A stretch of DNA of 64,000 bases from Nitrosopumilus sp. (GTDB taxonomy: Archaea > Thermoproteota > Nitrososphaeria > Nitrososphaerales > Nitrosopumilaceae), in assembly GCA_965204345.1 (NCBI GenBank), contig OZ241981.1:1536001-1600000 (forward strand), read 5' to 3'. The notes under the pieces are model-generated. The model did no database searches. It was not told the origin of the DNA and was given only the letters and a program-made list of their open reading frames with translations. The translations under genes and the position numbers were made by a program. Positions 3,958 through 18,807 of the stretch are shown piece after piece; position 1 is the first letter of the stretch; every line of letters begins with the position of its first letter.

Positions 3958-4059
3958 CTGGATGGATTGCACCTGAAATTTCTATTGGATTAGGGGGGGG
4001 GAAAACCCTGCATCGCCTTTCAAACCCTGGATGGATTGCACCTGAAATTTCTATTGGAT
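3958..4059. repeat. 33-bp direct repeat pair (3958-3990, 4027-4059) around a 36-bp spacer
   Basis: ctggatggattgcacctgaaatttctattggat occurs twice. Confidence 0.9.
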
Positions 4060-4510: not shown

Positions 4511-6358
4511 TTAGAATAGTCGTTTCTGACTTCTTTCTATATTTTTCATGCCTATTTTCTTTTTCCTTGATTTTTTGCTCTTTTTAGTTTTCTTGGATGC
4601 TTTTGAGACAATTTTTTCTTCCTTTGATTTATCCAGATTTAGTTTTGGTTGTTTACCCCATACCATCTTTTCTAGCTCTGCTCTCAATCTCATCGTCTCG
4701 ATTGAGACAGTTGTTACTTTTCGTAACAGATCTATCACATGTTCCTTATGATCTGCAAATTTGTACGTGTTGAATTTTTTCCTAATTTTGGGATCATCAC
4801 ACGATTTGGCGTGGATCATGTTTTTGGATTCTTTGTAGAATTCCAGAATCCATTCCAGTGCACACCTTGAGCTGAACTTGTATCTGAGGGCATCGTCTGG
4901 TATGTCTTCCAACATGGTCTGTTCATCTATTACTATTTTTGATAGTTTGTCCTCTTCCTTGGATTTCTTTAGACTTAATTTGACGCGGTTTTTCTTGGTT
5001 TTTTTGTCAGTTCGCTTTAGAGGATATGGTTTAGCACTTTCGAATCCAACATGAAGATCATAGAGTTTTTTGCCTATCCCAACCCATTCCATGAAATTTT
5101 CTGCCAAGGGTATTCTCGGGAATTTTCGTTGCAGATTGAACATATATTTTTCTGAATATTTTGGGTCATTGAATATGGCATATGTGTAATAGAATATGTC
5201 CTCATAAGTTATTTTACTACTTTTGTAATATGTTTGAAATAATTTTAAACCAAACTCTGTGATATTACTGTATCGTTTATTATTATCTCCATACATGTAA
5301 AGTGGAATACATTGTGCGCCAGGAATACAATCGTTTGAAGTTATTTTATTCGTTGCCAATGTTTGAAATAATATGTTAGTTTTTGGATTTACAAAACATA
5401 TTATCTTATTTGAATTTTGATCTGGAAATATCTGCGGAAATTTTCTTAACCAATCGATTATTATTTTGTCAAAGTATTGATATTTTACTACGAACGGTCT
5501 ATACATTGTCTTTTGAATATTTGTTTTGGTGTAAGATAAGCGATTACCGCGCAATAAATGATTTAATCCGCCTCTAGTCCATTTTATTGTTTTGTCTATC
5601 TCTTTCCCAATTTCTTTTACAGACTTTGTTGTATTTTCATATGTAACAATTTGACGATTATAAAATGTGAAAAAATATTTGATTTTATTTTCTAATCTTT
5701 TTTTATCAAAACTATATACCCAATCGTCTTTGGATGACATCGTTCCCATTGAAAGCAATTCAAACAGGGAATTCTCATCATACGCCACAGGAACCAACTC
5801 ATCAAAATCATTATTGGTCTGGTTAAGCCAATTAGCCTCCTTGTCAGGCATTATTTGCCTTAGTGATAGTGTAGAAAGCGAGTTGTCCGCAAGCCATTTG
5901 AGCTTCTCTTCTCTTTTCATATCGTCATCGACTTGTGTATAATAGATCTTAGATACCTTTTCACCAGTTTTAATAAAGAAGGAGATTGTGATGCCTATCT
6001 TCGCTTTACTTCCAAATACTTTTCCACCTTGTTTTCTCCAATTGGTTACATTTTGATTTCCTTTTAAATTTACAGTATAGATGTAATCAAATTCCTCATA
6101 TACTGCTCTCCTAAAACCGTCATCTGACTTTGCATCAAGAAAAGAATTATTGCTAATAAACACAACCATGCCATTTTTCTTGATACGCTCACTTGACCAC
6201 TTAAGAAACCGTTTGTACATGTCATACTTGGTGCTACCTTTTTTCACATTGGTATTGCTCCAAGTCTTTTCGATTTTTTGGTCAATGTCAGGATATTTGT
6301 CTGCAGGGTTAGCATCATTGAAGGATACCTGTATCGCGTTGTACGGCGGGTTTCCCAA
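4511..6358 (-). CDS. Truncated alternative C-terminal cassette (motif IV onward plus TRD) of the Type ISP/IIG-like methyltransferase
   Basis: Starts at (L)GNPPYN, lacks SAM-binding motif I; block-wise near-identical to the C-terminal part of 11252..14413. Confidence 0.9.
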   Translation of the reverse strand: MGNPPYNAIQVSFNDANPADKYPDIDQKIEKTWSNTNVKKGSTKYDMYKRFLKWSSERIKKNGMVVFISNNSFLDAKSDDGFRRAVYEEFDYIYTVNLKGNQNVTNWRKQGGKVFGSKAKIGITISFFIKTGEKVSKIYYTQVDDDMKREEKLKWLADNSLSTLSLRQIMPDKEANWLNQTNNDFDELVPVAYDENSLFELLSMGTMSSKDDWVYSFDKKRLENKIKYFFTFYNRQIVTYENTTKSVKEIGKEIDKTIKWTRGGLNHLLRGNRLSYTKTNIQKTMYRPFVVKYQYFDKIIIDWLRKFPQIFPDQNSNKIICFVNPKTNILFQTLATNKITSNDCIPGAQCIPLYMYGDNNKRYSNITEFGLKLFQTYYKSSKITYEDIFYYTYAIFNDPKYSEKYMFNLQRKFPRIPLAENFMEWVGIGKKLYDLHVGFESAKPYPLKRTDKKTKKNRVKLSLKKSKEEDKLSKIVIDEQTMLEDIPDDALRYKFSSRCALEWILEFYKESKNMIHAKSCDDPKIRKKFNTYKFADHKEHVIDLLRKVTTVSIETMRLRAELEKMVWGKQPKLNLDKSKEEKIVSKASKKTKKSKKSRKKKIGMKNIERSQKRLF

Positions 6359-6362
6359 GACC
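6056..6362. repeat. 307-bp perfect inverted repeat, left arm (partner 12550-12856)
   Basis: Reverse complement matches ggtcttgggaaacccgccgtac...aatttaaaaggaaat. Confidence 0.95.
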
Positions 6363-6366
6363 TGTC

Positions 6367-7530
6367 TTAATGGTGTGTGAGTATAGCCAGAATGCAGTCA
6401 ATCTGCTTCGGTGTAGCCTGATCTATCATCTCTTGTATTCGTTGCTTTTGCTCCAATTTGGGAATCTCACTAACTTGATCCAGATATTTCTCAGATCGTG
6501 CAAAAGCATTACTCATCTCGTTTACTAGAATTACAGGAAGTATTCCCTTGTTTGTAGTATATCTTGATTCTATGGTTCCTTTGTGTCCCATAAAGAAGGT
6601 ACGAAAATCATGTGCCATCTTTCCACGAGATTCTGCGATTAACAGTTGTGTATCAAAATATGCACGTAATACATAAGGCCTCCATGTAAATTTTGGTCTG
6701 AAAGTCTGACGTATTCTATCGCTTATGCGCTGTGTTGGAAGGAATGCCTTTTTTGATCTACGCCAAGTGTGTGTTGCTCGGTGGTCATTTGGAGATATTA
6801 CCGGTGAGTGTCCACACAGATCCTCCCCACATGCCAGCCTGTCGTTTAGATACGTCACAAGATGTTCTGTTGCAGATCTTGTGGAAAATGTAAAGTATTG
6901 ATGTCCAGCTTTTGACAGCTCACGTCTTACTATGATTTTATTTGGTAACTGATTGCACTTTACTTTCCCATGACATATTGTAATATCTGGAAGATCTCTT
7001 ATCTGTAAACCATCAGTTCCTCTATAGTTTCCAATTACTCCCGGTCTTAGACCTGATTTAGCCATCAGAGAAATCATTACAGATTCCCTCAAATCGGTTT
7101 TACGGTATATGTCTAACATCTCACTTGCATCTGGCACTCGTTCGTTCTGTAATGTAGGGGAAAAACCGAGTGATGCTACTCTTACTTTCCTTCTTACCAT
7201 TACGTCAAAATGTCTGAACCATGATTTTACGGTGTTTATATGATCTTCAATGTAACCGGGAGAATAATTGTGAGATTCCATCATTGTTATATGATCCTCC
7301 AGTAGATCGGTTGCAGTTCTTAGATCATTTACCGCTAGATCTGCAAGATGTGCAGGGTTAGTATGGTGCATCTCGCAGAACCTTCCCAGCTTTCGAAGAC
7401 GTCCTTCAGCTGTAAGCGGACTTCCACGTACCATGTTGTCATACCATCTTTTGACATCTTGATCCTGAAGCAGTTTAGATTTTTTGTGTTTGATTGAGCT
7501 AGCTTTTGTACATGATTTGTGAGTTGTCAT
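6367..7530 (-). CDS. Tyrosine recombinase / site-specific integrase (candidate invertase)
   Basis: SGLRP (R), YVLRAYFDT (HxxR equivalent), FMGH, ESRY (catalytic Y). Confidence 0.88.
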   Translation of the reverse strand: MTTHKSCTKASSIKHKKSKLLQDQDVKRWYDNMVRGSPLTAEGRLRKLGRFCEMHHTNPAHLADLAVNDLRTATDLLEDHITMMESHNYSPGYIEDHINTVKSWFRHFDVMVRRKVRVASLGFSPTLQNERVPDASEMLDIYRKTDLRESVMISLMAKSGLRPGVIGNYRGTDGLQIRDLPDITICHGKVKCNQLPNKIIVRRELSKAGHQYFTFSTRSATEHLVTYLNDRLACGEDLCGHSPVISPNDHRATHTWRRSKKAFLPTQRISDRIRQTFRPKFTWRPYVLRAYFDTQLLIAESRGKMAHDFRTFFMGHKGTIESRYTTNKGILPVILVNEMSNAFARSEKYLDQVSEIPKLEQKQRIQEMIDQATPKQIDCILAILTHH

Positions 7531-7880
7531 ACATATGGGTTTTAAACTAGCAACTTAATTCCGTTACCCAAGAAATTACTCTCTGTTTATAAAAAAACAT
7601 CACGCAACATGCATATTAGAATCATTATTGCTGTTTGATATCCACCCAAACCCATATGACCTCAGAATATCGTTTATCCCACACAAGATTTGTTTGTCTA
7701 TACACGACTATGCAAGAATTGAACTCCCAATAGGTGAACATATTAAGAATTATCCGCCAAAGAAAAAATAACCATGATAGTCAACAGAAGGCCAACGTCA
7801 TTCACATCACAAGGCATGCCAAAAAAATACAAAATATCTGTTGAAATGTTGAGATTAAAAAGGAGGCCATATAACCTAAA

Positions 7881-10800
7881 ATGAGTAATATGTCTGATGA
7901 AGAATGTCACATAGACAACGAAGACATAATAGACAATGAACATCACATACTCATCGATCATCTTCGTTCTGCCTTGCCAGAAACCAAGAGAGCAAGTATT
8001 GCTGTAGGTTATTTTTTCATCTCGGGATTTTCTGAAATTATGGACAGCTTAGCAAGAATAGAGAACAGTGAAGATCCAAACGACATGATACGCCTGCTAA
8101 TATCCCCCACCACAAACCGTGCTACAGCTGAGGCTCTACTTGCTAGCAATGAGAATTTGGATTCCGTTCGAAAAAATATATCAGTAAAAGAAACCACTGA
8201 TGAGCAGGAAGTAGGAATCATGAAAGACCAAGTGAAAAAAACTTTGGAATACATGCCTCAGACAACAAAAGATCAAGTAGCTGCCAAAAAGATCAGAGAA
8301 TTAATTCAAAAGAAAAAGCTACAGGTAAAGGTATACACCAGAGAACAACTACATGCAAAAGCATACATCTTTGAGCTTGATAACACCATAGCTCCACGGA
8401 TGGCAATAGTTGGATCCAGCAATCTTTCAATATCTGGAATAAAGGAACATACTGAATTAAATTTAAAGACCAAGAATGATGCAAATGTCAAAGGTCTGCT
8501 ACAGTGGTTTGATTGTCATTGGAATGATAAAAGTTGTAAGGAATTTACAGAAGAGATTGCAGATATTTTAGATCGATCATGGACAGGCAATGACAACACT
8601 CCTGAAGATGTATACGGCAAGGCATCCTTGTATGAACATGAAAAATTAATAGGTCATGGAGTTGACGGTGAGTCTAATGGAACTAAGGAACTGTTTGACT
8701 TTCAAAATAAGGCTGTCAGTGAGGCACTTACAAAACTCGATAATTACAATGGCGTGATCATTGCAGATGTGGTTGGCACAGGCAAGTCATATATTGGTAG
8801 TGAGATACTGAAGCGTCTCAAGGATTATCAACACGCAAAACCTTTGGTGATCTGTCCTCCACATCTAATTGAAATGTGGAGAAATCTTTTGCGCGATTTT
8901 GACATTTATGGAGAAGTAGAATCCAGATTTAAAATAGGTATGGATGATAATGTGTTACGTCGTTATACACATTGTGATGTGATACTGATAGATGAGAGCC
9001 ATAACTTTAGACATCACGATACCAATGCATATCAAGCACTGTCTGCATTTATGGAAGAAAAGACCGATGAGGCAAAAATGATAATGCTTACTGCCACACC
9101 AATATCCAACACCATACACGATCTTAAAAACCAGCTAAAGCTATTTCCTACAGAGGGTGTTGAAAGAATACCGCCTGTTGGATCTACCAAATTGGATGAG
9201 TACTTTAAAGGACTAGAAAGTGCAACCAGAGAGGTCAGTCCAGAAGGGGTAATCAAGATCCAAGAACTGTTAAAACATGTACTAATACGCAGAACTCGAA
9301 CCCAGATCATAAAAAAATACGCAAAACGTGATGGTAATAGATATTATATGGACATGAAAGAAGGACGTAAATATTTTCCAAAACGAAAGCTGCAAAATCC
9401 AGAGGAATATGATGCAGATAAGGTATACAACAATGCCTTTGCACAGATAGAAAATGCAATAGAATCACTTCATCTAGCAAGATATGTTCCAGGAAAATAT
9501 ATCAAAGATGAATTTCTCACAGATACAAGATATGCTGATCTTGTAAACATCTCAAGACCAATGTCTGGCATAGTCAGAACATCCCTACTGAAACGAATGG
9601 AAAGCAGCCTAAAGGCCTTTGATACTAGTATCAACAACTACCAGAAAGGATACAGACTATTTAAAAAACAATTAGAGAAGGGTAGAATTCCAATTGGAAA
9701 GGAATTCAAGGATGTAATATACAAAAAGATGGATGATGATTATGATGACAAAGATTATGATGAAGATATTGCAAACATCAAATCAAAATATGATATCAAG
9801 GCATTTGATGTGGATTTGTGGAAAAAAGAGATTGATGAGGATCTTAGCAAGTTTGCTGAAATTGTAGGCCATCTACGAGGTGAGGAATTTACAAAACGAG
9901 ATGACAAACTTCACAAGCTCCGAGATCTGATCAAAGACAAGGATGAAAAGATCTTAATATTCTCAGAATCAGCAGAAACTGTCAAATACATTTATGATTA
10001 CCTGAAAGATGAGCTCCCAAAAGATAGAAAGATAGAAAAGATTGACTCCAAGGTGGATCAAAAGACAAAAACATCGCTAGTGGAGAGATTTGATCCCAAG
10101 AACAACAATGCGGCTGATAAAATACCCGAAAACAAAGAGATTGACATACTGGTAAGCACTGATGTTTTATCAGAAGGAGTAAATCTGCATGCTGGCAAAA
10201 CCGTAATCAACTATGACTTTCACTGGAATCCGGTACGACTCATTCAAAGAGTCGGAAGACTGGACAGGATTGGTTCAGAGCATCCGATAATCGATATTTT
10301 CAATTTTCTACCTACAACAAAAATTGACATAGCACTATCATTACAGGAAAGAGTATCTGAAAAAATTAGAACAATTCGTAGAATAATTGGTTCTGACCAA
10401 CAAATATTGGTGGCAACAGAAGACATTGATGAAAAAGGCATATCGCCAATATACAATCCTGATGACAATGATGACATATCAGATCCAGAGATACAGAGTG
10501 GCATTTTCGACATAGAGGAAACAGATTCTGAAAAACATGCAGATGATATAAGCCAAGATAAGGAGAAGAAAAATTATTTTGACAATTTACCGTTTGGAAT
10601 AAGGGCAGTAACTGGTTCAGACAAGCTCATAATAGCATGCGAGGCAGAAGGATCAATTTTGGATCAAGACGGAAGGGGTAATCTCGGTACAGCATTTAGA
10701 AAGCATTATGAAATAACAAAAAATGGAAATCTGAATTCCATAACTCCATCATCTTTTCTCAAACAGATTGGTAACAACATCAACCATACAGGAAAATGTG

Positions 10801-11252
10801 ATGACTTGCAGTACAATGATTTAGTAGGCATTGCGTGGAAACGGTTCGTACGGGATATGAAAAATGAATCAGTCCGAAATACAGAGCGTAAACATCAGAT
10901 ATTTTTTGATAAAAAATTGACACGTATTGCAACACATGATAGGTCTCTTGCAGAACGTGCAAAGAAACTAAAACCGTTTGTGACTGCTGAAAAGTCCGCC
11001 ATGCTAGCATCACGAGCTACACTTGCAGAACGTGCAAAGAAACTAAAACCGTTTGTGACATCTAGAATGAGGCACACACATCAGCCTTATAGAAGCCTGT
11101 CTGAGTTGCACAGACAGATTGACAAAGACGTTTCAATGAATGATGCTACGATAATTGATGAACTTGAAAAAATCCAAAAAAAATACGGCCACATCAAATA
11201 TACAAAGACCATCAAAAAGCCCAGAATATTATACAGTATGATGGTGAGCTAA
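7881..11252 (+). CDS. PLD-family nuclease fused to SF2 (SNF2-like) helicase; putative restriction subunit
   Basis: LHAKAY...GSSNLS; ADVVGTGKS, DESH, TATP, STDVLSEGVNL, QRVGRLDRIG. Confidence 0.88.
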   Translation: MSNMSDEECHIDNEDIIDNEHHILIDHLRSALPETKRASIAVGYFFISGFSEIMDSLARIENSEDPNDMIRLLISPTTNRATAEALLASNENLDSVRKNISVKETTDEQEVGIMKDQVKKTLEYMPQTTKDQVAAKKIRELIQKKKLQVKVYTREQLHAKAYIFELDNTIAPRMAIVGSSNLSISGIKEHTELNLKTKNDANVKGLLQWFDCHWNDKSCKEFTEEIADILDRSWTGNDNTPEDVYGKASLYEHEKLIGHGVDGESNGTKELFDFQNKAVSEALTKLDNYNGVIIADVVGTGKSYIGSEILKRLKDYQHAKPLVICPPHLIEMWRNLLRDFDIYGEVESRFKIGMDDNVLRRYTHCDVILIDESHNFRHHDTNAYQALSAFMEEKTDEAKMIMLTATPISNTIHDLKNQLKLFPTEGVERIPPVGSTKLDEYFKGLESATREVSPEGVIKIQELLKHVLIRRTRTQIIKKYAKRDGNRYYMDMKEGRKYFPKRKLQNPEEYDADKVYNNAFAQIENAIESLHLARYVPGKYIKDEFLTDTRYADLVNISRPMSGIVRTSLLKRMESSLKAFDTSINNYQKGYRLFKKQLEKGRIPIGKEFKDVIYKKMDDDYDDKDYDEDIANIKSKYDIKAFDVDLWKKEIDEDLSKFAEIVGHLRGEEFTKRDDKLHKLRDLIKDKDEKILIFSESAETVKYIYDYLKDELPKDRKIEKIDSKVDQKTKTSLVERFDPKNNNAADKIPENKEIDILVSTDVLSEGVNLHAGKTVINYDFHWNPVRLIQRVGRLDRIGSEHPIIDIFNFLPTTKIDIALSLQERVSEKIRTIRRIIGSDQQILVATEDIDEKGISPIYNPDDNDDISDPEIQSGIFDIEETDSEKHADDISQDKEKKNYFDNLPFGIRAVTGSDKLIIACEAEGSILDQDGRGNLGTAFRKHYEITKNGNLNSITPSSFLKQIGNNINHTGKCDDLQYNDLVGIAWKRFVRDMKNESVRNTERKHQIFFDKKLTRIATHDRSLAERAKKLKPFVTAEKSAMLASRATLAERAKKLKPFVTSRMRHTHQPYRSLSELHRQIDKDVSMNDATIIDELEKIQKKYGHIKYTKTIKKPRILYSMMVS
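10947..11059 (+). repeat. 38-bp direct repeat pair (10947-10984, 11022-11059) with 37-bp spacer, in frame
   Basis: cttgcagaacgtgcaaagaaactaaaaccgtttgtgac twice; LAERAKKLKPFVT duplicated. Confidence 0.9.
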
Positions 11253-14200
11253 TGAGTTTTGATGAGCACATAAAACCACTGCAAAGAGATTTTCAGAATG
11301 TAGGGTACACTACAATCCGGGAACCGTGGGATACCAGCAGACTTTGCAACGAAGACGCTGTGATAGATGTGGAAATAATTGCAAGGAAGGATTATTTCAA
11401 TATTTTGTATCTTGAGGCAGAATCAAATTGGAGGGGATTATCCAGTCAAGTAGCCCAAAAAAACACAAATCCCTGTATGGTGATTACCCGATACGGCGAT
11501 ACACATCACATCTTTACTACAATGAGAGATCACGGAACTTTGCATGCAAAGCCTCGACATGTCATATTGAGGACAGAGATTAAAAAAGAGTTGATTGTCA
11601 AATTCATTCACGAGATTAAGGTTAACGTAAATGATGAACACATAGAAGTTGACACAAAAGTACAAAATGCATTTGATAAATTCACTGCATACCAACAGGC
11701 CATTGATGAATTTGCTGAGAATCTTGAAAAAGCGATAAAAAATACACGTGCTATAATAGTCAAGTCATCAAAAGACAGCAAAGACTATGATGTAGAAGCT
11801 GCAAAATTTCTAGACATGTGTCGCAAGGTAATTAGCGATAAGCTAGAACCAAACGACATTACAGAAATGTTATTGCAACATGTCCTAACATACAGAATTT
11901 TTGCCCTGATATATGATGAACACAAGCTTCATACTACAAATGCAGTTGCACGATCTCTCGAAGGATTGATCAACATACTTGGCATGGATGTAAAAGAGAT
12001 TAATGCAAACTATAGTACAATAGAGCTTGTCGCAGAGTCTATCACTGATGCTACAGAAAAACAGGATTTTCTAAAGCAGGTATATGAAACATTTTATGCA
12101 AAGTATGATCCAAAAAACAAGGACAGTTGGGGAATAGCATACACGCCATCAGAAGTAGTAGACTTTATGGTAAAGTCTACAGAACAATTACTTGAGAAAC
12201 ATTTTGGAAGAAATCTCTCTGATGACAATGTCACAATACTTGATCCTGCAACTGGAACCGGAACATTTGTGACATCCGTTTTGAGACATACAAAACCGAC
12301 ATCGCTTGAATCAAAATACAACAATGATATTTTTGCAAATGACATATCTATACTTGCGTATTACATCGCAGCTCTAAACATAGAGAATACCTATCAGGAA
12401 ATAACAGGCAAGATTAAAGAATTTGAGAATATTTGTTGGATGGATACTCTTACAAGCGGTACAAAAGATTTTGGTAAATTAAGCTCATATTTTGACGGAC
12501 AAGACAACGTAAAGCGCATATCAAGGCAACAAACAAAGGACATATGTGTGGTCTTGGGAAACCCGCCGTACAACGCGATACAGGTATCCTTCAATGATGC
12601 TAACCCTGCAGACAAATATCCTGACATTGACCAAAAAATCGAAAAGACTTGGAGCAATACCAATGTGAAAAAAGGTAGCACCAAGTATGACATGTACAAA
12701 CGGTTTCTTAAGTGGTCAAGTGAGCGTATCAAGAAAAATGGCATGGTTGTGTTTATTAGCAATAATTCTTTTCTTGATGCAAAGTCAGATGACGGTTTTA
12801 GGAGAGCAGTATATGAGGAATTTGATTACATCTATACTGTAAATTTAAAAGGAAATGCAAGAACATCTGGTGAGCTACGACGAGAACAAGCAGGCAATGT
12901 ATTTCGAGATACTATCAAGGTAGGAATCACCATATCGTTCTTCGTTAAAACTAGTGAGAATAAATCAGAGATTCATTATACTGAGATAGATAACTACCTA
13001 AAAAGCGAAGAGAAGCTCAAATGGCTTGCGGACAACTCGCTTTCTACACTATCACTAAGGCAAATAATGCCTGACAAGGAGGCTAATTGGCTTAACCAGA
13101 CCAATAATGATTTTGATGAGTTGGTTCCTGTGGTAAATGATGTCAACTCTGTATTTAAGAAGTTTTCATACGGTTCTCAATCAAATCGAGATGAATGGGT
13201 ATATGATTTTGATAAAAAAAGATTAGAAAATAAAATCAAATATTTTTCCACATTTTATAATCGTCAAATTGTTACATATGAAAATACAACAAAGTCTGTA
13301 AAAGAAATTGGGAAAGAGGTAGACAAAACAATAAAATGGACTAGAGGTGGATTAAATCATTTATTGCGCGGTAATCGCTTATCTTACACCAAAACAAATA
13401 TTCAAAAGACAATGTATAGGCCGTTCGTAGTAAAATATCAATACTTTGACAAAATAATAATCGAGTGGTTAAGAAAATTTCCTAGTATATTCCAAGATTC
13501 CAAGCCAAACATGTTAATTGGATTTCCAAATCCCAAGACTAACATACCATTCCATACATTAGTAGCTGATAAAATTATGGACACAGGCTCTGTTCTTGAT
13601 ACACAATGTATTCCACTTTACATGTATGGAGATAATAACAAACGATACAGTAATATCACAGAGTTTGGTCTAAAATTATTTCAAACATATTACAAAAGTA
13701 GCAAAATAACTTATGAGGACATATTCTATTACACATATGCCATATTCAATGACCCAAAATATTCAGAAAAATATATGTTCAATCTGCAACGAAAATTCCC
13801 GAGAATGCCATTGGCAGAAAATTTCATGGAATGGGTTGGGATAGGTAAAAAACTCTATGATCTTCATGTGGGGTTCGAAAGTGCTAAACCATATCCCCTA
13901 AAGCGAATCGACAAAAAAACCAACAAAAATAACGTCAAATTAAGCCTAAAGAAATCAAAAATAATGATCGATAATCAGACAATTCTTGAAGATATTCCAA
14001 ATCAGGCATTACAATACAAGTTTAGCTCAAAATGTGCACTAGAATGGATTTTGGAATTCTATAAGGAATCAAAAAATCAAATATCAGACAAGTCATGTGA
14101 TGATCCCAAAATTAGGAAAAAATTCAACACATACAAGTTTGCTGATTACAAGGAACATGTGATAGATCTGTTACGAAGAGTAACAACCGTCTCAGTCGAA

Positions 14201-14413
14201 ACTATGAGATTGAGAACAGAATTAGAAAATATGCCTTGGGGCAAACAACCAAAACTAAATCTGGATAAATCAAAAGGAGAACAAACTATCTCAAAAGTAT
14301 TCAAGAAAACTAAAAAGAGCAAAAAAGTAGCAAAAAAAACCCGCAAGAAAACAAAACAGGCAGCCGGTATGCAAGAAACACTTGACGACCATGGTCAAAA
14401 AAGGCTGCTCTAA
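11252..14413 (+). CDS. N6-adenine DNA methyltransferase with Type ISP-like C-terminal specificity domain
   Basis: YTPSEVVDFMV, LDPATGTGTF, GNPPYN, NLKGN, RDEWVY, YRPF, IFYYTYAIF, ALEWI; TAATG coupling to the upstream gene. Confidence 0.9.
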   Translation: MSFDEHIKPLQRDFQNVGYTTIREPWDTSRLCNEDAVIDVEIIARKDYFNILYLEAESNWRGLSSQVAQKNTNPCMVITRYGDTHHIFTTMRDHGTLHAKPRHVILRTEIKKELIVKFIHEIKVNVNDEHIEVDTKVQNAFDKFTAYQQAIDEFAENLEKAIKNTRAIIVKSSKDSKDYDVEAAKFLDMCRKVISDKLEPNDITEMLLQHVLTYRIFALIYDEHKLHTTNAVARSLEGLINILGMDVKEINANYSTIELVAESITDATEKQDFLKQVYETFYAKYDPKNKDSWGIAYTPSEVVDFMVKSTEQLLEKHFGRNLSDDNVTILDPATGTGTFVTSVLRHTKPTSLESKYNNDIFANDISILAYYIAALNIENTYQEITGKIKEFENICWMDTLTSGTKDFGKLSSYFDGQDNVKRISRQQTKDICVVLGNPPYNAIQVSFNDANPADKYPDIDQKIEKTWSNTNVKKGSTKYDMYKRFLKWSSERIKKNGMVVFISNNSFLDAKSDDGFRRAVYEEFDYIYTVNLKGNARTSGELRREQAGNVFRDTIKVGITISFFVKTSENKSEIHYTEIDNYLKSEEKLKWLADNSLSTLSLRQIMPDKEANWLNQTNNDFDELVPVVNDVNSVFKKFSYGSQSNRDEWVYDFDKKRLENKIKYFSTFYNRQIVTYENTTKSVKEIGKEVDKTIKWTRGGLNHLLRGNRLSYTKTNIQKTMYRPFVVKYQYFDKIIIEWLRKFPSIFQDSKPNMLIGFPNPKTNIPFHTLVADKIMDTGSVLDTQCIPLYMYGDNNKRYSNITEFGLKLFQTYYKSSKITYEDIFYYTYAIFNDPKYSEKYMFNLQRKFPRMPLAENFMEWVGIGKKLYDLHVGFESAKPYPLKRIDKKTNKNNVKLSLKKSKIMIDNQTILEDIPNQALQYKFSSKCALEWILEFYKESKNQISDKSCDDPKIRKKFNTYKFADYKEHVIDLLRRVTTVSVETMRLRTELENMPWGKQPKLNLDKSKGEQTISKVFKKTKKSKKVAKKTRKKTKQAAGMQETLDDHGQKRLL
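12550..12856. repeat. 307-bp perfect inverted repeat, right arm
   Basis: Partner of 6056-6362. Confidence 0.95.
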
Positions 14414-18350: not shown

Positions 18351-18428
18351 TGGCGCCCTCGGCGGGATTTGAACACGCGTCTCAGCCGTGACAGGGCCGA
18401 ATTCTAGACCGGGCTATACTACAAGGGC
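18351..18428 (-). tRNA. tRNA-Asp(GTC), CCA encoded
   Basis: Cloverleaf gcccttg...cgagggc-g-cca; anticodon loop CT-GTC-AC. Confidence 0.93.
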
Positions 18429-18524
18429 ACAAGTTGTTTGAAATAAAATGCCCGATTAAAAGTTTCTGTCATAACAAAATCTTTTGTAAAAGACTAAATT
18501 ATACAGTAAAGGCATTTTTTACGA

Positions 18525-18598
18525 GGGTCTATGGCGCAGCCAGGTAGCGCACCGGACTTTTAATCCGGTTGTCAAGGGTCCGAATCCCTTTAGACCCG
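18525..18598 (+). tRNA. tRNA-Lys(TTT)
   Basis: gggtcta...tagaccc-g; ccgga-CTTTTAA-tccgg. Confidence 0.95.
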
Positions 18599-18807
18599 CT
18601 TCTCTTTTATCTCATTTTCAAGGCTCAAAAGTACCATGATGACCGATTGAAATCTATAGTAGTCTTGTAGGACATAGTATAATCATGTCAAAGACGTTCA
18701 AACTTTCAATAGATGATCGTATAACTTAGCACTAGGAGAATCTACGCGTTTTTTTATATCCTTTTTACCGCAGTCTATCTTTAAAATAGCATTATTTTTC
18801 AAATTTT

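Follow-up and report, generated by a model that had tools for sequence, protein, structure and literature searches.

Introduction

Programmed inversions are known in bacteria, where a scan restricted to that domain (archaea excluded) confirmed them with long reads (Milman et al. 2023, PMC9881135). In that work, Type II restriction-modification (RM) genes of the IIG, Cj0031-like kind invert beside a gene for a phospholipase D (PLD) and SNF helicase protein, and some of the loci have more than two variants. How related enzymes read DNA is known from structures: six loops and one helix in LlaGI, which is of Type ISP, read its target, with particular loops corresponding to particular positions, residues Q1118 and K1131 read C:G at position -1, and a “guide” subdomain takes no part in target recognition (PMC4872093), while DrdV has 12 base-contacting residues (bioRxiv 10.1101/2021.01.06.425610). 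Rewiring specificity loop by loop has been an engineering goal of the structural work on LlaGI/LlaBIII and MmeI. For archaea, a preprint reporting a long-read survey with 42 archaeal data sets calls invertons “only minimally investigated.” Here we describe a locus in a 64-kb stretch of the genome of Nitrosopumilus sp. (assembly GCA_965204345.1, contig OZ241981.1, positions 1,536,001 to 1,600,000; hereafter the window), in which a methyltransferase (MTase) gene faces an inverted, headless copy of itself, and which is probably a shufflon-type, gene-altering inversion locus in a two-gene Type IIG/Type ISP-like RM system of a Nitrosopumilaceae-type archaeon.

An inverted mosaic of conserved blocks and variable segments

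Four long open reading frames (ORFs) occupy the region (Table 1; coordinates are those of the window, and the two copies are labeled active for the full-length frame and silent for the headless one). The 1053-aa product of the full-length frame begins with about 145 aa without assignment and continues with the hallmarks of Type ISP enzymes: an ISP coupler, a gamma-class N6-adenine MTase with its NPPY motif at aa 437-440, and a Type ISP C-terminal specificity domain. Pfam assigned PF22240, PF02384, PF07669, and PF18135; the best PDB match was DrdV (7lo5, E 2.6e-191) over residues 146-991, spanning coupler/connector, MTase, and target recognition domain (TRD), with LlaGI (5ffj) and LlaBIII (4xqk) each at E about 1e-115; and PADLOC reported REase_MTase_IIG (Type IIG restriction enzyme-methyltransferase, E 1.2e-189). 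A Pfam scan of the N-terminal 150 aa returned zero families, and the first 145 residues fall outside the DrdV, LlaGI, and LlaBIII alignments. The silent copy is devoid of the S-adenosylmethionine-binding half and is open for just 628 codons.

Table 1. Features of the locus (nucleotide positions in the window; loops by amino acid position in the active protein)
Feature	Gene or active copy	Silent copy	Strand	Block	Remarks
MTase/target-recognition gene	11252..14413		+		1053 aa; ORF, Pfam, PDB, and PADLOC matches
HKD/PLD nuclease-SNF2 helicase gene	7881..11252		+		1123 aa; 3' end overlaps MTase start
Tyrosine-recombinase-like protein gene	6367..7530		-		387 aa; inside the putatively invertible segment, directly upstream of the silent cassette
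Silent 3' cassette		4511..6358	-		615-aa open frame from NPPY to the end; PF18135, E 2.6e-73
C1	12550..12856	6056-6362			307/307 nt identical; encodes loops I and II
V1	12857..13006	5912-6055			holds MTase loop III
C2	13007..13133	5785-5911			127/127 nt identical
V2	13134..13206	5712-5784			holds TRD loop IV
C3	13207..13482	5436-5711			98.2% identity; encodes jaw, helix H, and loop V
V3	13483..13601	5317-5435			most of TRD loop VI
C4	13602..13907	5011-5316			97.1% identity
Diverged tail, including V4	13908..14337	4560-5010			guide subdomain
Loop I	aa 436-446			C1	0 residues differ
Loop II	aa 471-480			C1	0 residues differ
Loop III	aa 533-556 (nt 12848-12919)			V1	13/24 residues differ, plus a 2-aa indel
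Loop IV	aa 640-647 (nt 13169-13192)			V2	5/8 residues differ
Helix H	aa 698-706			C3	0 residues differ
Loop V	aa 736-743			C3	1/8 residues differ (E738D)
Loop VI	aa 776-786 (nt 13577-13609)			core of V3	9/11 residues differ

A repeat search of the window found five inverted-repeat pairs linking 4560-6362 with 12550-14337. The earlier note on this DNA had described alternating near-identical blocks, C1 to C4, between the two copies, and base-by-base comparison bore this out (Table 1); the peptides that it quoted for the variable segments V1 to V4 all occur in the two translations. The exception was V4, which had been listed as a discrete variable segment and instead forms part of a region, 3' of about 13908, that is diffusely diverged (82-88% nucleotide identity) and within which V4 amounts to 3 of 10 residues differing. 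The perfect 307-nt inverted repeat of C1 cannot be explained by chance in 64 kb. Since the copies are offset only by indels of 6 nt (V1) and 21 nt (tail), all multiples of three, every homologous crossover would be in frame, and because the inverted repeats sit inside both the full-length gene and the headless copy, inversion would change the coding sequence.

Substitution rates within the mosaic speak to its origin. Nei-Gojobori estimates per segment, active versus silent copy, gave a synonymous divergence (dS) of 0 for C1, 0.056 for C2, 0.04 for C3, and 0.157 for C4 (nonsynonymous divergence, dN, 0.004 in C4); the corresponding dS values were 0.70-2.19 for V1, 2.08 for V2, 0.86-1.43 for V3, and 0.75 for the diverged tail (dN 0.12). 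Because synonymous differences are beyond the reach of purifying selection on the protein, the C blocks must have been homogenized recently between otherwise old copies, and the mosaic is a product of recombination. For loop III the ratio dN/dS was about 0.9 and for loop VI 0.77; in framework parts it ranged from 0.03 to 0.2.

Variable segments and base-reading loops

The earlier note had counted all of V1 to V4 as loops that could combine to vary specificity. Loop and contact residues were transferred through HMMER alignments to DrdV and LlaGI (LlaGI chain index plus 164 equals the numbering of PMC4872093, as verified at N1018, R1119, F1133, and R1138). By these alignments V1 (loop III), V2 (loop IV), and V3 (loop VI, the last residues of which extend into C4) coincide with base-reading elements, and V4 maps to the guide. 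Taken together, the seven recognition elements differ between the copies at 28/79 aligned positions, as against 39/369 elsewhere in aa 436-885 (Fisher p 2.9e-7). Half of the equivalents of the DrdV base contacts (6/12) differ between the copies, and all six lie in V1-V3: the equivalents of N548, R554, and D564 in V1; that of N673 (LlaGI N1228) in V2, where the active copy has N and the silent one S; and those of D803 and K807 in V3.

The equivalents of LlaGI Q1118 and K1131 are A536 and N549 in the active copy and Q and K in the silent copy. The silent V1 would accordingly be predicted to add a reading of C:G at position -1 that the active V1 lacks. Since V4 maps to the nonreading guide subdomain, it is predicted to be irrelevant to specificity, and the 16 loop combinations proposed in the earlier note were an overcount; the ceiling for specificity is 8.

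Reassortment of V1 between related strains

A search with the cassette protein recovered 1007 relatives (E <= 1e-20), and among the best 120 of these, 21 are 533-782 aa long (own genome's included). Full-length proteins are paired with partial proteins of 580-635 aa on at least 6 other contigs (the two entries of the genome itself left out), and four of these six contigs (164739, 3209351, 13722, and 314800) also carry close homologues of the recombinase-like protein (66-98% identity); a common contig was assigned from equal listed sizes in each case and verified at the DNA level for genome G288 only. The silent cassette here and five other partial proteins start exactly at NPPY. Every pair compared holds two V1 types, each of which can be found at the expressed or at the silent position.

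The closest pair consists of P0122 (full-length) and P0124 (partial), with a recombinase assigned to the same contig that is 98% identical to that in the window. In V1, P0122 resembles the silent copy (45/45 identical residues, versus 22/47 for the active copy) and P0124 the active copy (45/47, versus 23/47 for the silent one). Elsewhere the assignment is the opposite: V2 of P0122 is closest to the active copy (24/26, versus 13/26 for the silent one) and V2 of P0124 to the silent copy (24/27 versus 13/27 for the active one); loop VI follows (P0122, 11/11 active and 2/11 silent; P0124, 2/11 active and 10/11 silent), as does the tail (P0122, 54/55 active and 44/62 silent; P0124, 49/62 active and 56/62 silent). 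P0122 thus combines the silent V1 of this genome with the active V2-V4, and P0124 has the reciprocal set: V1 appears to have been exchanged reciprocally between expressed and silent positions, and V2, V3, and the tail not. One gene conversion by itself does not account for the exchange, since it would lack reciprocity. An inversion at C1 followed by one at C2, starting from the arrangement in the window, gives exactly the P0122/P0124 product with the orientation of the head restored. Combinations beyond the two parental haplotypes, which the earlier note had considered possible, were thus found between strains and at the protein level.

Other pairs differ in other ways. P0127 and P0129 agree in 447/450 columns as far as a point just beyond NPPY and at about 60% thereafter, the same head on a different cassette, whereas in the pair P0134/P0131, V1 and helix H/loop V differ and V2 and V3 do not. 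In P0122/P0124 and P0127/P0129, therefore, the rearrangements expected from the repeats are found between related strains, again among proteins. The substitutions in C1 and C2 that separate this genome from the P0122/P0124 strain occur in both copies within each strain, so these blocks show concerted evolution. C3 and C4 proved otherwise: taken as conserved recombination blocks in the earlier note, they are diverged in the pair of the closest relative (14/41 and 70/99 residues identical). Because the jaw (C3) and C4 of P0124 are diverged, the near-identity of C3 and C4 in the window reflects recent, nonreciprocal gene conversion.

The same layout in another genus

In a cassette search at E <= 1e-120, 4/401 genomes matched, and G288 (a different genus; 3.2 Mb in 2 contigs) was the only other one with several copies; at E <= 1e-50, 4/61 genomes matched, the window's own counted. 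The order at its locus (L089) is third cassette (+), silent cassette (-), recombinase orthologue (78% identical, in the equivalent location), an unrelated 447-aa ORF, helicase, and MTase (+). Perfect inverted blocks of 308 nt and 138 nt occupy the C1 and C2 positions, and two further ones cover helix H to loop V (191 nt) and the tail with its 3' flank (about 500 nt). C1 and C2 are perfect within both genomes, yet many nucleotide differences separate the window from G288.

The third cassette of G288 (L089 3443-5044) is in direct orientation and begins at the C2 block. Its N terminus is foreign, a duplicate of part of a neighboring ORF (89% identity over 160 nt), and the database counterpart of this cassette, P0240, has a Pfam match to a DDE transposase family; it may be a decayed or captured cassette.

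Beyond these genomes, a metagenome scan with the 29-nt core of C2 gave zero matches, and one with the cassette profile gave 3 loci, with inverted repeats in none.

The recombinase-like protein

As a single query, the 387-aa protein had no match in Pfam, NCBIfam, PADLOC, or PDB, and a 28-sequence alignment, compared with Pfam member by member and with PDB as a profile, still recovered no family; the top PDB matches of the profile were TAL-effector repeats, which we judged spurious. An AlphaFold2 model built from the same alignment (mean confidence, pLDDT, 75.1) gave 12 Foldseek matches at E <= 0.001 (E 1e-5 to 1e-3), all of them tyrosine recombinases, among them XerA, archaeal Xer, IntI, Cre/Tre, and the Brujita integrase. 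The TM-scores of the model were low (0.30-0.41), as expected for two mobile domains. The predicted structure thus matches the tyrosine-recombinase fold. R162, K207, R289, H316, and Y324 are invariant and occur in the order seen in tyrosine recombinases; they are candidates for residues of the catalytic R-K-H-R-H/W-Y set.

The family comprises 1961 proteins at E <= 1e-5. At 71 species-representative loci, any MTase-like match was found at 3. Few of these loci adjoin MTase genes and none inverted copies, so the broad family does not consist of dedicated invertases. For the protein in the window, we infer an invertase role from its position, which is shared by 2/2 cassette-bearing loci resolved at the DNA level.

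Public sequencing runs

A search of public data found 8 runs in 3 studies that hold the locus. Four of these, from three studies (X1, X2, X5, and X7), were examined as k-mer contigs, which end at repeats and collapse single-nucleotide polymorphisms (SNPs) in C3/C4. That the inverted partial copy, or its mosaic, might have arisen by misassembly of strain variants is very unlikely. The genome (2.12 Mb) is in 9 contigs with 3.49% estimated contamination, and runs X5 and X7 contain a minority haplotype in the silent loop VI, as such an origin might lead one to expect; but the contigs of all four runs cover both copies with their unique flanks, the k-mer depth of C1 is doubled (298 versus 139.5 in X5), and the independent two-contig genome G288 has the same structure.

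Two substitutions make up the minority haplotype, T>A at 5335, which changes N to Y, and C>T at 5351; its depth is 28/188 in X5 and 80/210 in X7, and it is the sole form in the metagenome runs X1 and X2. The N-to-Y change of 5335 is also present in P0124, and the haplotype is not derived from the active copy. Two joints, 5068/5296 and 5296/13850, were considered as recombinants and rejected, as C3/C4 SNP bubbles appear collapsed there.

A candidate mechanism and its alternatives

If the locus is an inversion system of the shufflon type, a 6.2-kb head (recombinase gene, HKD-SNF2 helicase-nuclease gene, and 5' half of the MTase gene) would sit between inverted homology blocks, and an inversion at C1 would join this head to the other 3' cassette, replacing all DNA-reading elements distal to NPPY. 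Crossovers further in, at least at C2, would exchange distal modules only, so that loop III (V1) could be reassorted against loops IV and VI (V2 and V3); C3 and C4, as recent gene-conversion tracts, could host crossovers too. Because each loop reads particular target positions, the chimeras should methylate or restrict different sequences. Inversion would then take place within a population, the adjacent tyrosine recombinase rather than homologous recombination may be the driver, and the chimeric enzymes may be active. The strongest form of this proposal is a loop-level, combinatorial archaeal shufflon in which loops III, IV, and VI reassort independently to give up to 8 working specificities, driven by a tyrosine-recombinase clade without a family model or by homologous recombination; we regard it as possible and put it forward tentatively.

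Several observations weigh against such a switch, or against parts of it. A helicase and an MTase gene adjoin the recombinase at 1/71 of the species-representative loci (L018), where there is no cassette, and an inverted MTase duplicate is found at 0/71. C1-C4 contain no common motif (no 14-mer at <=2 mismatches, save three A/T-rich pairs at chance level), so a site-specific recombinase is not expected to act at all four. In the jaw (C3) and in C4, P0124 stands apart from the other three sequences (13-14/41 and 70-72/99 identical). The V1 exchange is read from predicted proteins of another assembly, in which a short-read misjoin across the 307- and 127-nt perfect repeats is possible, and since k-mer contigs stop at repeats, the switch and the chimeras within a population have to be inferred.

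A simpler scheme is a two-state switch, in which a single site in C1 is the recombinase's target, a cell expresses one cassette or the other in its entirety, the identity of C2-C4 reflects occasional gene conversion, and chimeras are rare and arise on evolutionary time scales. C1 is the longest perfect block and has the same extent in two genera (307 and 308 nt), the break between the shared head and the different cassettes of P0127/P0129 falls at C1, and the lack of a common core motif and the divergence of C3 and C4 in the relative all fit this scheme. We find it rather doubtful all the same: C2 is likewise perfect in both genomes (127 and 138 nt), the reciprocal V1 exchange in the nearest strain needs two crossovers rather than one conversion, and the third cassette of G288 starts at C2. 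A multisite switch is more likely than a two-state one.

It is also conceivable that nothing here is programmed, the partial copy being a relic of duplication or of recombination between defense islands, the recombinase the integrase of a mobile island with RM cargo, and any inversions accidental products of homologous recombination. The size of the recombinase family and its location mostly away from such MTase genes agree with this, as do the cassette-free locus L018 and the tRNA genes near the window's locus (18351-18599). We nevertheless consider it unlikely, given that the silent frame runs uninterrupted for 615 codons and has a low dN/dS in its framework parts, that the start at NPPY is exact here and in the five other partial proteins, that layout and block positions recur in another genus, and that no att-type direct repeats of >=18 nt were found flanking the locus.

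Genes and sequence features around the locus

Pfam matches of the 1123-aa protein were PLDc_2, SNF2-rel_dom, and Helicase_C (the nuclease domain, PLD/HKD, corresponding to PF13091 and PF09565), and PADLOC reported “HKD+Snf2” C3a139 (E 1.3e-70). The pair of helicase and MTase genes recurs in L018, L090, L005, and L085, so that they are conserved neighbors in 5 loci, the window's among them. Within its 3' end, the helicase gene contains a perfect 38-nt direct repeat with 75-nt spacing (10947-11059), which duplicates the peptide LAERAKKLKPFVT and at which the public k-mer contigs break. A second Type ISP-like frame lies elsewhere in the genome (G000:C1:1374830-1377424; L011/L003); it is a single polypeptide of 1592 aa with 32-35% identity to the MTase-TRD protein, and an inverted copy of it was not detected.

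In the gene-poor, A+T-rich stretch adjoining the silent cassette, a 33-nt sequence occurs in two perfect copies (3958-3990 and 4027-4059; 69 nt apart, 36-nt spacing), which might represent a minimal repeat unit, CRISPR-like or of another type. Within an Ala/Glu/Lys-rich ORF (2072-2878, - strand), degenerate direct repeats of 81 nt form a family at 2640-2828, with offsets of 12-54 nt. The tRNA genes, for tRNA-Asp and tRNA-Lys, are divergent and lie about 4 kb past the MTase gene. From about 3 kb to 20 kb the G+C content is 0.29-0.39, against 0.36-0.47 in most flanks, which would fit an integrated island.

Comparison with known systems

A specificity switch of this kind has hardly been described in archaea. 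Among the matches listed for literature on inverting RM systems, no paper names Nitrosopumilus, and the terms “inversion,” “shufflon,” and “recombinase” have 0 occurrences in a survey of archaeal RM systems. Provided that the chimeras are active, this locus and those related to it would amount to an experiment by nature in which Type ISP/IIL specificity is rewired one loop at a time, and ammonia-oxidizing-type archaea would join the organisms in which switches of restriction specificity serve as a hedge against viruses. A loop-level combinatorial shufflon, if it exists, would show that the base-reading loops of Type ISP/IIL enzymes are interchangeable parts.

The nearest parallels are the bacterial PLD-SNF2/Type II RM inversions (PMC9881135), which share the same gene pair, inverted repeats in coding sequence, and a nearby recombinase. 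The locus described here differs from them in its archaeal host, in a recombinase family without a Pfam model, and in variable segments that could be mapped to single base-reading loops. BREX type 1 PglX of Lacticaseibacillus rhamnosus (PMC9881135) offers a parallel for the inversions themselves: an internal stretch of a related MTase is traded by nested inversions, and the product of two inversions restores the architecture with a swapped middle, as proposed for V1. PglX belongs, however, to a six-gene system, and its single-inversion intermediates are without a C terminus, whereas here every crossover would leave a full-length frame. The four-gene system MANTIS/Gao_RL was considered as a match and rejected.

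The proposed switch also resembles Type I hsdS shufflons (e.g., pneumococcal SpnIII/ivr), which combine partial, silent specificity genes with inverted repeats in several blocks and a tyrosine recombinase, and obtain more than two specificities from a small number of cassettes. In those systems entire target-recognition domains of the S subunit, a separate protein, are swapped; here the exchange would concern loops inside a single MTase-TRD clamp, including a loop of the MTase domain, and it is the 6.2-kb head of the operon that would flip. LlaGI and LlaBIII, both of Type ISP (PMC4872093), share the coupler, the gamma-class MTase, and the Type ISP C-terminal TRD, but each is described as one polypeptide that includes an Mrr-family nuclease, and neither is invertible, in contrast to the two ORFs here, in which the motor-nuclease is a separate HKD-SNF2 protein and not Mrr. 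By sequence, Type IIL DrdV (PDB 7lo5) is the best match across coupler/connector, MTase, and TRD, yet it has an N-terminal endonuclease and no ATPase partner, and the first 145 residues of the archaeal protein do not align with it. A system of this kind is thus already known from bacteria; what is new is the archaeal host, the recombinase clade without a family model, and the resolution of the variable segments to the level of individual loops.

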